A stretch of DNA of 64,000 bases from Macrostomum lignano (Eukaryota): positions 124,001 through 188,000 of the forward strand of contig NIVC01000110.1 of assembly GCA_002269645.1 (NCBI GenBank). The letters are read 5' to 3'. The notes under the pieces were generated by a model. It made no database searches. It had not been told where the DNA came from and was given only the letters and a program-made list of their open reading frames with translations. Position numbers and translations under genes: made by a program. Below are positions 54,469 through 62,921 of the stretch, piece after piece (the first letter of the stretch is position 1; each line of letters opens with the position of its first letter).

Positions 54469-54906
54469 CTATTTTATTTGTAGAACATGTTTTCGAACCA
54501 TCAAATCATTTTCAAGCAGATTGGTAGAGTAACATTCCCTTAAAATCTTTTCAATCGACAACCCCTCTAAAAAGTGCTTTTCGGCCACAAAAATCACATG
54601 CGGCCCACACGCTACACTTAGAGGGTGTTGAACAGGGTGACGATTCATAGCAACAGGTGAATGTACATGCATCGAGATCCAAGCCGAGAGCAATTCCGGC
54701 ACGGGTTCAATACACAGGGGGTCAAAAAATGTCACACTCTTATCATCGTGTAGGCAAATCAGTCCCCAGTGGGTGCCTGGCAGATTACCCGTGTCAAAAT
54801 TAATTACATATGCAGCAGGGTAAACAGGTGCAGGAATTCTGTCGAGAGGGCAAACGTGCACTTCCACAGGTAGTTTTAAACGCTCCAAAATTTCCAACGT
54901 GTTCAT
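54469..54906 (-). CDS. Adenain-like cysteine maturation protease
   Basis: GTHW, FFDP and Q..S..CG give the His-Asp-Cys triad with oxyanion Gln. Confidence 0.92.
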   Translation of the reverse strand: MNTLEILERLKLPVEVHVCPLDRIPAPVYPAAYVINFDTGNLPGTHWGLICLHDDKSVTFFDPLCIEPVPELLSAWISMHVHSPVAMNRHPVQHPLSVACGPHVIFVAEKHFLEGLSIEKILRECYSTNLLENDLMVRKHVLQIK

Positions 54907-56184
54907 ACGTAGTCCAGAATGGGCTGGCGGCCTCTAGTGATTTGCACCGCGTTGTCAAAGTAACCAAACACCAAAACGTTAATCCCGGCAGGTAGGGCTG
55001 CAGAAAACTTTATCTGTAGGGTCAGATTCCCTCTCTCGCGAGGCATGCTATGTCCACCCAGTTCCATGTCGGGCATTAGATTCCACGCAAATAAGCAGTA
55101 ACCGGCGCGATAATCCGAATATGACAGGTCAATGTCCAAATCGCGATTCATTTTCCCTAGGCTCTTAAACAGCATGGCGTACTCGCGAGCATAGTTTTGG
55201 GCAGCGAACCTTGGAGTGAATGGTTGACCGCACAGACTGACACCGTCCTTGTACAGGGCCACACTGTCAGCCCCAAATGGCTCGAAATTGAACGGATTAT
55301 GGGTAGCCACCCCGTTATATGCGGCACTATTTACCATCCCATAATGACAAGTTTAGGCTTCTGCTCCGGGAAAATATTATTGATTGACACGTCGCGAACT
55401 CCTACAGCGACAGAGGTGTTGTGTACAACGAGGCGCTCGATGGGGTAGACTGCATTCTGAGTTGCCAGCTGTTCTTCAATCTCCAAGGCCAGTTGGGGGT
55501 TAGCCTTTACCCGACGAACGTGTAATTTTGCATTTGAAGAACCAACTTTGCATCAACCCCTTCGGCGTGATTCTCTACAACGAATCCCGAATTTTGCAGA
55601 GTGAGCGTAACCACCATATCAGTGTAGGGTAGCAGCATACGATCGTTGGTGACAAAAAAGTCGAGACTAAGAGGGCCATACAGGTGAAATGTTCGAGAAC
55701 CGGCAGCCATCGCCTTGCGAGTTACAAAGCCAGGATTTCCAACCGCAGCCATTTGACCCCCAGCGTCTTTAGCGTAGCCCATCATCCGCAGTTGGTTAGA
55801 CTTTGAATCAGACCCATAACTCAAGCATGTACGAATGTACGCCTTGTAGGCGTGGTTGTTGTTGCTAGACTCGATATGTGTACCATTTATGGAAAGAGAC
55901 ACGTTTTTGAACATGGTCTCCAAGAGGTAATTGATTGGCGCCACGTTTGAATCCGCCGCCAAATCGGCTCCATTAGCTCTCTTAATACAACCTTTAATCT
56001 CGAGATCAATGTCATTAAGATCGACAAACGTCTCGCCGCCCACAATTCTAAACTCGACCACACTCGCATTTTCGACGCTGGCAACCGGGTGGATTTCTTC
56101 AGTAGTTGAACCTACAGCGGCAATCTGGTGGGCTCGAGGGGCAAAGAGCTCAAACTCGGACTTTGTACACAGACACTCGGACAT
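54903..56184 (-). CDS. Double jelly-roll major capsid protein (Polinton PY/hexon-like), two apparent frameshifts
   Basis: Begins MSECLCTKSEFELF; contains YNG...NPFNF, GYCLFAWNL and GNLTLQIKF. Adding one base at the runs near 55537 and 55338 restores a single frame of about 427 aa. Confidence 0.88.
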
Positions 56185-56213
56185 GTTTAGTAGACAGACT
56201 CGATTCGGCGAAT

Positions 56214-56558
56214 CTAATTGAAGCGGGGCTTTTTATTTATAGTGCTGAAAATGTCTGAATTGAGACGCTTCGGAGCCTTTTTTCTTCTTCGTCCGCTACC
56301 CCTTTGGGTAACCGTGTCTTTAAAGGCGTCCTTGGCAGCCTGAACAGAATTGCGCAGGACAGACTCTTTCAAATTGCCTCCTTGCTCGAGGCTATCGTTA
56401 ACAGTAGTTGCTAGGGCTCTAGTACCATGACGGAGAACGTTTTTACCAAAACTCTTTAGAATTGGCAACGCGAAGCGGGCAATGCTTCCAAACAAACCGT
56501 TGCCCCTCTGGGCGCCCGCGAAAACAGGCAAAGCTCCACCAATCAGAATAGAAGGCAT
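56214..56558 (-). CDS. Small basic core protein (pVII-like Polinton protein)
   Basis: QRGNGLFGSIARFALPILK amphipathic segment and QRGSGRRRKK basic tail; the Q-x-G-x-G motifs resemble adenain cleavage sites. Confidence 0.7.
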   Translation of the reverse strand: MPSILIGGALPVFAGAQRGNGLFGSIARFALPILKSFGKNVLRHGTRALATTVNDSLEQGGNLKESVLRNSVQAAKDAFKDTVTQRGSGRRRKKAPKRLNSDIFSTINKKPRFN

Positions 56559-56601
56559 GATTAAGCACTAGGATATAGTTTACTGAGGCTGTGCTGTTTA
56601 T

Positions 56602-61178: not shown

Positions 61179-61694
61179 TTATAGTCCTTCTTTAACGACA
61201 CTTTCCGGTGTTGGAAATCCGGAAAAAATAAACCTTTTGTTTCGATCTTCTGGTCGAGGGGTTTGAGGCGTGTCGTGAATGCAGCTGCAGTGAGGGTTGA
61301 TAGTCAACTTCGCTAGCACTGGTCTACTGTGTTTAGGTCGCCAAATCCTTTGGTGTTCCGTCCACGAGGGAGCAATCGGCTGGTGATTCCGGTACCGTAT
61401 TTTCTCACGATGATCCTCTTGTAATATTGGGGCAATTATCTGCTCCATTCTTTGAAGATTGGCTTTGAAATGCATCTTGTCTCTAAAGTAGTAGTCAATT
61501 CGGGCATCTGTATATTCTTGGGTGCTGTAAGGCCCTTGCCCAATTTCGTCTACCTCGACATTAAAGGTGACTAATCGTTCGGGAATTGGTTTGCCGTGAC
61601 AAATGCATAACCAGTCTGTGGACTTTTTCAGGGTCTCGTACTCTGCCCTTTCTTTGCTCGATAAAAGCGGGTAGTCTCGAGAAATCCAGCTCAT
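61179..61694 (-). CDS. Hypothetical protein (171 aa)
   Basis: Intact ATG-initiated ORF whose start overlaps the stop of the upstream ORF (ATGA). Confidence 0.65.
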   Translation of the reverse strand: MSWISRDYPLLSSKERAEYETLKKSTDWLCICHGKPIPERLVTFNVEVDEIGQGPYSTQEYTDARIDYYFRDKMHFKANLQRMEQIIAPILQEDHREKIRYRNHQPIAPSWTEHQRIWRPKHSRPVLAKLTINPHCSCIHDTPQTPRPEDRNKRFIFSGFPTPESVVKEGL

Positions 61695-62044
61695 TCCTCT
61701 GACTCGTCAGATTCGTCGAGAAAGAAATAGTGGAAGAAATTGTCGACTCTATTCTTTTCAACTGCACAAAGTATTTTGTCTGACAGGTGAAATTCGCAGT
61801 CTCCTTTTACGTACAGGCGCTTCCCGTCGATAACTTTGATAGATGCGCCGCCTCCGAGATCGTAATCTGTGCAGCTAGTGTCCAGAAATTTCATTCGATG
61901 CCATTGTGCTCGACTAAACACGGCTCCTGGACAGCTACAGTTTTGACAGTGGATGCGGAAACGCGGTTTGTTTGGGTCCCAATATCCCACTTCCAGCACT
62001 GCGTTGTCAACGTGGGTGTACACTATTTCCGATTGCCAGTACAT
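61691..62044 (-). CDS. Hypothetical protein, possible PC4-like ssDNA-binding fold
   Basis: GAVFSRAQWHRMKFLD resembles PC4 GISLNPEQWSQLKEQI; acidic C-terminus; TATAAATA lies 32 nt upstream of ATG 62044. Confidence 0.5.
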   Translation of the reverse strand: MYWQSEIVYTHVDNAVLEVGYWDPNKPRFRIHCQNCSCPGAVFSRAQWHRMKFLDTSCTDYDLGGGASIKVIDGKRLYVKGDCEFHLSDKILCAVEKNRVDNFFHYFFLDESDESEE

Positions 62045-62078
62045 TTCGATATTGTTGAGAAATACCAATTTTATTTAT

Positions 62079-62858
62079 TTATAGGCTGCCGTCTGAACAG
62101 ATTTCCAACCATTCCCTCCACTGTAGAACGGTTCTCTCAATTGATAAAAGTAAATACGCCGCTAGGAGCCCCCGGTTGCTGCTGCGCGCTTCGTAAAGAC
62201 AGTTGAGATATGTGTCTCTATTTGCATACGCAAATGATACGGGTTCTGGCAGAATCCGGTTGATCAACTTTGATAATAACAACCTAGCAGTTCTACCATT
62301 GCCGTCGCTAAAGGGGTGTATGGTGAGAAACTTTTCTAGGAAATATGCTCCTGTCACTACTGCATCACGCAAGATTTGTGGCTCTTTTATGTCTCTAGTT
62401 AATTTTACCAGCTGCCGTTCAATATTTTCTGGGGCACTGTAATACATACTCGCGCCTGCTGGCTTGGCGTGCTTAATTCTATACGATCCTGCATTCGGGA
62501 GCAGTCCTCTGCACACGCGTGTGTGAACTTGTCTAACAAACTCTGTGTCAATTAACCCCCTCGTGTCATTGAGGTGTATTGCCGCACTCCATAGATTGGC
62601 TGTGACCATACAGGACCGGGTTTTTATCGCTTCTTCTGCTTCCTCCCAAGTCAACGCCACCTCTCTCTCCTCAATGTTTACTTCAGTTACGAATGCCAGC
62701 CGGGCTAGATACGTGAATTCTAAGCGCTCCTTTGCGGTCAATCCCTCGATTCTTTTCCTAGTGTCTGATAACAATCTTTCAATGAGGGGTAATCTGGCGC
62801 GCACGCTCTCGTTGCTGAAATAGGGGTTATCAGTTATACCCTCTTCCATGTTCTCCAT
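62079..62858 (-). CDS. Fic/Doc family protein (putative AMP transferase)
   Basis: Canonical HPFSDGNGRTAR motif, preceded by V..VH..V..GL..NAGSYR and FLEKFLTIH; no signal peptide or TPR seen. ATG at 62858 or 62849. Confidence 0.92.
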   Translation of the reverse strand: MENMEEGITDNPYFSNESVRARLPLIERLLSDTRKRIEGLTAKERLEFTYLARLAFVTEVNIEEREVALTWEEAEEAIKTRSCMVTANLWSAAIHLNDTRGLIDTEFVRQVHTRVCRGLLPNAGSYRIKHAKPAGASMYYSAPENIERQLVKLTRDIKEPQILRDAVVTGAYFLEKFLTIHPFSDGNGRTARLLLSKLINRILPEPVSFAYANRDTYLNCLYEARSSNRGLLAAYLLLSIERTVLQWREWLEICSDGSL

Positions 62859-62921
62859 ACAGAGGGTTTTGTACACTGCTTCTATTTATGGTTGCATTAA
62901 CACGTTGCTCGCGGCCTGTCT

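Follow-up and report, generated by a model that had tools for sequence, protein, structure and literature searches.

A stretch of Macrostomum lignano DNA in which one TATA-like 8-mer recurs ahead of genes, next to a gene for a TBP-like protein, raises the question of whether a small mobile element directs its own transcription. The initial annotation of the window (the whole 64,000-nt stretch analysed here) had proposed a self-contained programme in which the TBP-like protein recognises or competes for the element's own TATA boxes. At stake are the order in which Mavericks express their genes and the question of whether particles are formed. A fixed box ahead of the particle genes combined with an element TBP is a testable model, and it would extend the viral-TBP strategy from herpesviruses and giant viruses to animal elements of 10-20 kb.

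The boxes lie within an element at positions 53048-63602 of the window (10,555 bp, or 10.6 kb), in which every gene is on the minus strand. This is a Maverick/Polinton-type element, with inverted repeats, a 6-bp target duplication, an integrase and no polymerase gene. The left terminal inverted repeat (53048-53722, ~680 bp, with 31-nt sub-repeats) and the right one (62925-63602) have arms that are 100% complementary over 595 nt, plus a 47-nt inner arm; the termini read ACT...AGT and are flanked by the duplication CTTGGG at 53042-53047 and 63603-63608. The integrase expected of a Maverick/Polinton matches Pfam rve (E 5.3e-10). Below, family A denotes the family of this element and family B its sister family, while clades C, E and F are other Mavericks of the same genome. 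Five PolB queries for a protein-primed family B polymerase (pPolB) gave no match in the window or in 20 stretches of families A and B, and the element is therefore classed as non-autonomous and Maverick-derived. With neither this DNA polymerase nor an RNA polymerase gene among the element's ORFs, "self-contained" was too strong a description.

The packaging-ATPase-like protein shares 32-40% identity with the ATPases of PolB-bearing clades (Pfam recognises only a P-loop), and the protease-like one is 33% identical to a protease of a PolB-bearing clade; their clade C counterparts have weak Pox_A32 and Peptidase_C5 matches. The major-capsid-like gene has 427 codons, stands at the expected place in the gene order and is common to the clades; no double-jelly-roll match to it appeared in Pfam or the PDB. 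Scans of viral contigs found no relatives, a metagenome scan gave 12 weak partial matches, and a search of protein representatives yielded three relatives (63, 36 and 32% identity), all singletons without context. We found no promoter analysis of such elements in the literature searched, and the main text of PMC8502044 contains neither such an analysis nor the word "promoter".

Following the minus strand, the variant box CATAAATA (62883-62890) has its first base 32 nt ahead of the ATG of a 259-aa Fic-domain gene (62079-62858; Pfam PF02661, E 6.6e-14), and is not retained in family B, which is without Fic. A TATAAATA box at 62076-62083 contains the Fic stop codon and stands 39 nt ahead of ORF117 (61691-62044), which has no family match and is followed by ORF171 (61179-61694), conserved in family B. 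A second box class, TATATAAG (61134-61141), precedes ORF226 (60410-61090) by 51 nt; this gene joins a conserved 180-residue core (61090-60551) to a non-conserved basic tail. A predicted 67-nt intron (60484-60550, with GT at 60550 and an AG ending at 60484) leads to the TBP-like exon (60010-60483), whose open frame (60546-60010) lacks both a start codon and a box of its own. The box at 59990-59997 lies ahead of ORF129 (59582-59971), a small conserved gene with an amphipathic-looking C-terminus, and the box at 59701-59708, about 120 nt into ORF129, is 129 nt ahead of ORF193 (58998-59579), a homologue of a 230-aa gene of clade C (E about 7e-5).

The box at 58955-58962 has its first base 45 nt ahead of ORF92 (58639-58917) and 142 nt ahead of the integrase (57744-58820). 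ORF92 starts with Met-Gly, is Cys-rich, overlaps the integrase start and is conserved in family B (57 of 87 aligned residues); the integrase has a chromodomain-like end (Chromo E 0.054) and in this copy is split into fragments in different frames from about 58230 to 58050. Within its 3' end, the box at 57767-57774 stands 34-43 nt ahead of a minor-capsid-like gene (56602-57740), named by position only and lying in two frames here (break near 57150). The box at 56599-56606 contains the stop codon of that gene and precedes by 48 nt a 114-aa basic core-protein-like gene (56214-56558; PZ position, named from gene order), within which the box at 56234-56241 stands 57 nt ahead of the major-capsid-like gene (54903-56184). 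The latter takes its name from its size, its place in the gene order and its homology to clades C, E and F; this copy has it spread over three frames, with breaks near 55530 and 55340. The cysteine-protease-like gene (54469-54906) has no upstream box in A, B or C. Finally, the variant box TACAAATA (54475-54482), identical in B, is 48 nt ahead of the packaging-ATPase-like gene (53805-54434), whose stop is overlapped by an AATAAA without the TAT prefix.

These boxes had been listed correctly in the initial annotation: seven exact TATAAATA copies on the coding strand (56234, 56599, 57767, 58955, 59701, 59990 and 62076), three variants ahead of genes, and a reading of TATAAATAAA at 56234, 56599, 59990 and 62076. 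Its spacing of 19-50 nt to the start codon at eight sites agrees within one base with our 18-49 nt (from the box end), as do its larger distances of 135 nt at 58955 and 122 nt at 59701 with our 134 nt (to the integrase) and 121 nt (to ORF193). The 58955 box is not an outlier, however, because it lies 37 nt ahead of the 92-codon ORF (58917-58639) conserved in the sister family. The expectation of under one copy also held: for the 9,202 bases enclosed by the inverted repeats, Markov models of orders 1-4 give means of 0.17, 0.18, 0.29 and 0.75, against seven seen, and none of the 1000 simulations per order reached seven copies. The motif is the commonest 8-mer of this region, and the plus strand of the element has no exact copy.

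All seven exact boxes, as well as TACAAATA and TATATAAG, are identical in family B, while identity between A and B at four-fold sites is 42% (223/531). The rough chance of such conservation is 1e-13 to 2e-8 over 38 free positions, or 0.0015 over the 11 synonymous positions alone. Two further look-alikes inside the integrase (58543-58550 and 58091-58098) are not conserved in B. Across nine gene starts the first base of the box is 32-57 nt from a conserved ATG, and in clade C an HTTAAGAA box before the ATPase, ORF112, minor capsid and integrase is never nearer than 37 nt; this floor of 32-37 nt is as expected of an element at the TATA position. The boxes are thus very probably core promoters of the element's genes. 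A single element-wide code overlooks a second class of box: TATAAATA is uniform, but the one ahead of ORF226 is different.

The TBP-like gene is real and under purifying selection (A versus B: dN 0.14, dS 1.84, dN/dS about 0.08). Its Pfam TBP (PF00352) match has an E of 9.5e-5 and 22.6 bits, just under the cut-off of 22.9, and all matches of the structural model to the PDB that Foldseek listed at E<=0.001 are TBP chains. Like cellular TBP and TRF2, the protein has the two-repeat saddle fold (TM about 0.47, lobes poorly oriented, in a modest model with pLDDT 68.7, pTM 0.50 and an rmsd to TBP of >7 A), and it keeps N69 of the dyad polar pairs, V71, T112, two of the four intercalating Phe (F116 and F190) and the acidic TFIIB-side stirrup (E186 and E188), positions being in yeast numbering. 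It differs from them in a shorter repeat 1, whose alignment is uncertain, and in the replacement of F99 and F207 and, among the dyad polar pairs, of T124, N159 and T215. Identity to the host TBP, in which every canonical DNA contact is present, is 18%. The Met that opens the alignment and the model stands for a TTG codon and is not a true start. A TBP-like protein was rightly called, but its frame lacks an ATG and probably needs splicing.

It is likely that this frame is a spliced exon of the upstream gene, ORF226. Donor and acceptor are kept in 11 of 11 A/B stretches, and the length between them varies (67 nt here, 195-196 nt in family B). Contigs from eight runs, none on record as RNA, show no joint at the predicted intron and no piling up of starts or ends, which counts neither for nor against splicing. 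The ORF226 core is 75% identical between A and B; it had no match in Pfam, PHROGs or the PDB and no usable Atlas match, and hhalign of the core against clade E exons gave a probability of 1-2%. As the core model gave no usable fold (pLDDT 33), we call it SSB-like from its gene position and from a pattern that we presume to be that of a T7-type (gp2.5-type) SSB. Family A offers a likely spliced architecture, in a polymerase-less family that keeps the gene under selection.

Other Mavericks of the genome allow the pairing of box and protein to be compared. In structural regions, TATAAATA occurs 6 times in A and 6 times in B, but not in 16 other regions of clades C, E and F. Clade C instead has 7-8 copies of HTTAAGAA in 6/6 regions, clade E 1-3 copies of TTATAAGC in 7/7 (44-55 nt ahead of 9/9 minor-capsid starts), and clade F 2-3 copies of TATAAGAA in 3/3; these boxes were chosen by eye, and with four clades from a single genome the comparison has four data points. 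Every clade encodes a TBP-like protein of its own, with 15-23% identity to that of the element, and the stirrup is acidic in all of them. Across the four clades box and protein change together, in support of a late switch like that of herpesviruses. The unit that encodes the TBP-like protein has a separate box class in A and B (TATATAAG ahead of ORF226) and in E and F (a canonical TATA), but not in C. The TBP-like gene of clade C likewise follows the clade box (10/10), which misfits a simple early-late order. An AT-rich PolB family without a TBP-like match has boxes scattered over both strands, in stretches that may not cover whole elements.

We propose, tentatively and as a reading whose chances we see as close to evenly poised, that the TATAAATA boxes are core promoters of the particle and integration genes, and that the spliced TBP-like protein is a late activator acting with host Pol II. 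Host TBP would start ORF226 at TATATAAG, likely an early promoter. Unspliced RNA would give ORF226 with its charged tail, and spliced RNA would probably encode the TBP-like exon fused to the ORF226 core. The TBP-like domain might then occupy the uniform boxes and recruit TFIIB and Pol II through the kept acidic stirrup. Several boxes overlap poly(A) signals of the preceding gene, and such dual use could yield packed transcripts; the element's DNA, with no polymerase gene of its own, would be replicated by a polymerase supplied in trans. A wider form of this model, for animal Mavericks at large, we consider rather unlikely: a one-protein early-late switch in which the DNA face of a mini-TBP and the late box diverge together, alternative splicing to an SSB in two clades ties late transcription to replicating DNA, and the four clades form a series of reprogrammed TBP-box pairs. 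Four such pairs in one genome would allow swap tests of TBP specificity, with family A, given its canonical box, making the least convincing case for specific pairing.

That canonical box also gives its force to another reading, possible though we do not expect it to prove right, in which host TBP reads all the family's boxes and the TBP-like protein acts as a TFIIB/NC2/Mot1 decoy or competitor, represses early or host promoters, or aids replication or ssDNA binding. The cellular TATA consensus is TATAWAWR; since TATAAATA fits it and the contacts of host TBP are complete, no special reader is required. The same 8-mer occurs in 2 of 4 regions upstream of a non-structural gene in clade C and ahead of the early unit of one clade E subfamily (2 of 9), half of the intercalating Phe and most polar contacts are lost, and the acidic stirrup is kept in all clades. 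The likely fusion to an SSB-like domain points the same way, with a precedent in Giardia TBP, which, without three Phe, prefers ssDNA (PMC12209930). The title of PDB 1qn5 moreover describes a crystal of wild-type TBP with a G(-26) TATA variant, so it is not certain that host TBP is excluded from TAAG-type boxes. Left unexplained are one exact 8-mer at seven sites, though host TBP tolerates many variants, the different box of ORF226, and the joint change of box and protein between clades. Recognition of the element's own boxes by its TBP-like protein thus gains from this joint change and loses from a box that host TBP can read. Virophages have promoters that imitate those of giant viruses, and the boxes here might similarly be read by a helper virus or some other resident element. 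This would suit an element that in any case needs a polymerase supplied in trans, and the TAAG motifs of C, E and F and the TAAAT of A and B recall baculovirus and poxvirus late initiators. Those motifs are initiators that may abut the ATG, however, whereas here the floor is near 32-37 nt, and each clade keeps its own TBP-like gene; we consider this very unlikely.

How the TBP-like frame is started leaves the promoter reading unaffected. A trans-spliced leader (flatworm leaders ending in AUG exist), a frameshift or a non-AUG codon in place of cis-splicing is unlikely, although the A/B splice signals are weak (no pyrimidine tract at the acceptor, purine-rich intervening sequence), two codons ahead of the acceptor also match TBP strand 1, and one copy carries both parts in a single 375-codon frame. 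Against it, A-B conservation ends directly after the GT and restarts near the AG, the upstream frame in B stops ahead of the acceptor, and clade E has clear paired sites (in-phase GTRAG donors at 10/12 loci, pyrimidine-tract acceptors at 11/12). Two specific candidates were rejected: a ribosomal shift by -1 at the A-run that precedes the exon leads out of the TBP frame, and the B frame has already stopped; an internal start would have an early Met in B, not in A. It is highly improbable that the motifs serve solely for polyadenylation or arise as a by-product of codon and stop-codon sequence. Four of the seven boxes do read AATAAA, six gene ends have AATAAA nearby, TATAAA is a weak variant poly(A) signal and three boxes lie in coding sequence. 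The overlap named in the initial annotation is thus real, but a poly(A)-only role fits poorly, since three of the seven boxes are without AATAAA, B keeps AATAAA at two of the four sites yet keeps all boxes, the 59701 box is well within ORF129, family B retains the 62076 box although no gene lies upstream of it there, and AATAAA is not enriched at order 3 or 4 (260 and 527 of 1000).

Compared with known systems, the element resembles Mavericks, Polintons and adintoviruses, as described in PMC8502044, in its long inverted repeats, 6-bp duplication, rve integrase and the usual block of ATPase-like, protease-like and capsid-like genes; it differs in its ACT...AGT termini and in the lack of pPolB in families A and B. 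Poxvirus VITF-3 and the giant-virus TBPs are likewise divergent viral TBP folds for stage-specific promoters (PMC12917281, and BFVD matches of our modest model); these factors work with a virus RNA polymerase and a TFIIB-like partner, neither of which is among the element's ORFs. There is a further likeness to the herpesvirus vTBPs (EBV BcRF1, KSHV ORF24, HCMV UL87), which work with a TATT late box (PMC4893493). The same BFVD search suggests this softly, with BcRF1 (E 7.6e-4, TM 0.59) and UL87-family entries. Those vTBPs are large multidomain proteins in a six-member complex unmatched here, in contrast to an exon of about 160 aa, and the element protein keeps an acidic TFIIB-side stirrup and is, from its sequence, likely spliced to an upstream domain. 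The herpesvirus late box is TATT-like, whereas that of family A does not depart from the host consensus, as those of clades C, E and F do. Shared with the herpesvirus system, which PMC4893493 and PMC12529657 describe with host Pol II and with other genes behind canonical TATA, are an encoded mimic of TBP with a viral TBP fold (in beta- and gamma-herpesviruses) and a bare TATA-like box, uniform in sequence, ahead of structural genes.

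The Maverick/Polinton-type element is bounded by inverted repeats of ~680 bp at window positions 53048-63602, with CTTGGG on each flank. Its ends, ACTACT...AGTAGT, are the reverse of the AG...CT found at the termini of most Mavericks, and tandem arrays with periods of 8, 18 and 83 nt lie directly to its left (50000-52860). Every element gene is carried on the minus strand, in the order Fic (62079-62858; Pfam E 6.6e-14), ORF117, ORF171, ORF226, the TBP-like frame (60546-60010), ORF129, ORF193, ORF92 and the rve integrase (Pfam E 5.3e-10), followed by minor-capsid-like, core-like, major-capsid-like, protease-like and ATPase-like genes. 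These last five are named from gene order and from homology to Mavericks in this genome that carry a polymerase; Pfam and PDB searches gave no support for capsid identity. The integrase and both capsid-like genes are broken into pieces in the window copy, and the major-capsid-like gene is a single 427-codon frame in other copies. The conserved ORF92 (58639-58917, 92 codons), which starts with Met-Gly, contains several Cys and overlaps the integrase start, possibly encodes a lipid-anchored protein.

Close copies (family A) were found at ~33 places with 94-100% identity and a sister family (family B) at 6 places with 73-75%, 40 of 70 candidates being scored, and a protein search of the genome gave 91 matches; these are not insertion counts, because the host TBP too occurs as three identical copies. 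The Fic gene is intact in family A, with a full catalytic-type motif. In family B the 3' end of ORF171 is partly duplicated together with its TATATAAG box (L011:7600-7960), and the inverted repeats contain repeated TATATAAA units. Neither the window nor 20 stretches from related copies yielded a PolB; the PolB-bearing stretches L041-L042 and L047-L050, which had no match to the element's integrase or capsid-like genes, are a possible polymerase source in trans.

The main TATA-type box, TATAAATA, occurs exactly seven times on the coding strand, at the positions listed in the initial annotation, and never on the opposite strand. The formal enrichment test proposed there gave an expectation of 0.17-0.75 copies (Markov orders 1-4), with seven reached in 0 of 1000 simulations per order. 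The box-to-start spacings and four AATAAA overlaps were also as described. The box at 58955 is no outlier: the conserved 92-codon ORF begins 37 nt downstream. Measured from the first box base, the ATG lies 32-57 nt away at nine starts; for ORF193 the distance is 129 nt.

Families A and B are identical at 42% of four-fold sites (223/531) and 65% of two-fold sites (307/469). All seven TATAAATA boxes, TACAAATA before the ATPase and TATATAAG, a second class, before ORF226 are unchanged in family B, where the counterparts of the boxes at 59990 and 58955 were assigned by position across indels. Two look-alikes within the integrase (58543-58550 and 58091-58098) are not conserved, and the variant box before Fic is absent from B, a family without Fic. 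The probability of such conservation by chance is roughly 1e-13 to 2e-8 over 38 free positions, and roughly 0.0015 for the 11 synonymous box positions alone, both ignoring base composition. The motif is real and conserved; the boxes are under selection and positioned like TATA boxes, and the motif is very probably a promoter. It had been considered that the motifs might act only as polyadenylation signals, a reading that fits poorly: AATAAA is missing from three boxes, family B keeps the boxes but AATAAA at two of the four sites, one box sits ~120 nt within a gene, and one is retained in family B without any preceding gene. Double use as promoter and poly(A) signal at some sites is plausible.

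The TBP-like gene is real. Its frame matches Pfam slightly below the cut-off (E 9.5e-5), and a five-sequence profile that includes one more canonical relative matched 35 PDB sequences, each of them a TBP or a TBP fusion. For the AlphaFold model (pLDDT 68.7, pTM 0.50), every PDB match listed at E<=0.001 is a TBP chain (TM ~0.47, rmsd >7 A), and the BFVD matches include viral TBPs, herpesvirus BcRF1 among them. Between A and B the frame has dN 0.14 and dS 1.84. The protein is 18% identical to host TBP; in yeast numbering, and with an uncertain repeat 1 alignment, it retains N69, V71, T112, F116, E186, E188 and F190 and lacks F99, F207, T124, N159 and T215. The host has a canonical TBP and a TRF2-like gene, which mark it as an animal; their cores (L063, L064) are uninterrupted by introns and present as three identical assembly copies each.

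No in-frame ATG precedes the conserved TBP-like part in any of four sequences checked. A-B conservation ends exactly at a GT (60550) and resumes at an AG (60484), both present in 11/11 stretches with compatible reading phases; the interval measures 67 nt in each of eight A stretches and, in three B stretches, 196, 196 and 195 nt. Splice signals are weak in these families. Clade E, another Maverick clade with the same layout, has textbook signals 259-412 nt apart, with in-phase donors at 10, pyrimidine-tract acceptors at 11 and both at nine of 12 loci (about six subfamilies). The TBP-like protein is probably produced by alternative splicing. One copy joins the upstream domain, which may resemble a T7-type SSB, and the TBP-like part in a single 375-codon frame. 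Without splicing, the upstream gene of clade E terminates in an acidic tail.

TBP-like proteins are also encoded by polymerase-bearing Mavericks of this genome, in clades C (Pfam E 1e-21 to 1e-23), F (1.3e-19) and E (no Pfam match; placed by eye and by alignment). Their structural regions carry different boxes: TATAAATA is present 6 times in A and 6 times in B and is absent from the 16 other regions; HTTAAGAA occurs 7-8 times in 6/6 clade C regions (0.4-0.6 expected) and 0-2 elsewhere; TTATAAGC 1-3 times in 7/7 clade E regions; and TATAAGAA 2-3 times in 3/3 clade F regions. Boxes were chosen by eye on the first loci and then found in later-fetched stretches; the copies are related, so the sample is four clades, not eighteen independent samples. 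With a pattern also admitting CTTAAGC, the clade C box precedes the ATPase (13/13), ORF112 (10/10), minor capsid (7/7), integrase (9/10) and TBP (10/10), and not the protease (0/10), core gene (0/7) or PolB (0/4). The clade E box lies 44-55 nt upstream of 9/9 minor-capsid starts; for the unit that includes the TBP exon, a canonical TATA is present in 8/9. Deoxynucleoside kinase and dUTPase flank PolB in clade E (L043:7012-7449, L044:2474-3163); in clade C, one copy contains an ORF that weakly matches the Mab-21 C-terminal region (L032:6213-7385; E 1e-4) and another a 278-codon ORF that begins like an exonuclease and overlaps the TBP-like gene in another frame (L031:6823-7900). The TBP profile matched 5/40 PolB-centred stretches and none of 11 loci of an AT-rich PolB family, where these boxes lie unordered on both strands. 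This family (L037-L040, L123-L136, L139-L142) has a Pox_A32-like ATPase and A/T runs adjoining start codons.

The best single account, which we put forward tentatively at close to an even chance, is that the TBP-like protein would act as a late activator at the boxes. It stands ahead of a possible but rather doubtful reading by host TBP, with the TBP-like protein as a decoy or in a replication role. TATAAATA fits the host TBP consensus and precedes a non-structural gene in clade C (2/4) and the early unit of one clade E subfamily (2/9), and the DNA face of the TBP-like protein is strongly altered. Also counting against specific pairing, a Phe-poor TBP can favour ssDNA (PMC12209930), the clade C TBP gene itself sits behind the clade box, and one PDB entry, by its title, pairs wild-type TBP with a G(-26) variant. 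The in vitro binding of TATA and TATT alike by EBV BcRF1, described in PMC4893493, cuts both ways.

In a literature search, with subscription papers and Repbase outside its scope, no listed entry described Maverick promoters or a Maverick TBP-box pair; PMC11131425 mentions neither TBP nor TATA. Figure legends of Starrett et al. (PMC8502044; bioRxiv 10.1101/697771) label TBP-like genes in viruses from non-animal datasets, and one PMC8502044 supplement file gave no match, a search that could miss animal cases in figures or preprint supplements. The proposed arrangement of box and TBP-like protein would broadly work as the herpesvirus vTBP system does. A non-canonical box is one defining feature of that system; the element's family box is canonical.
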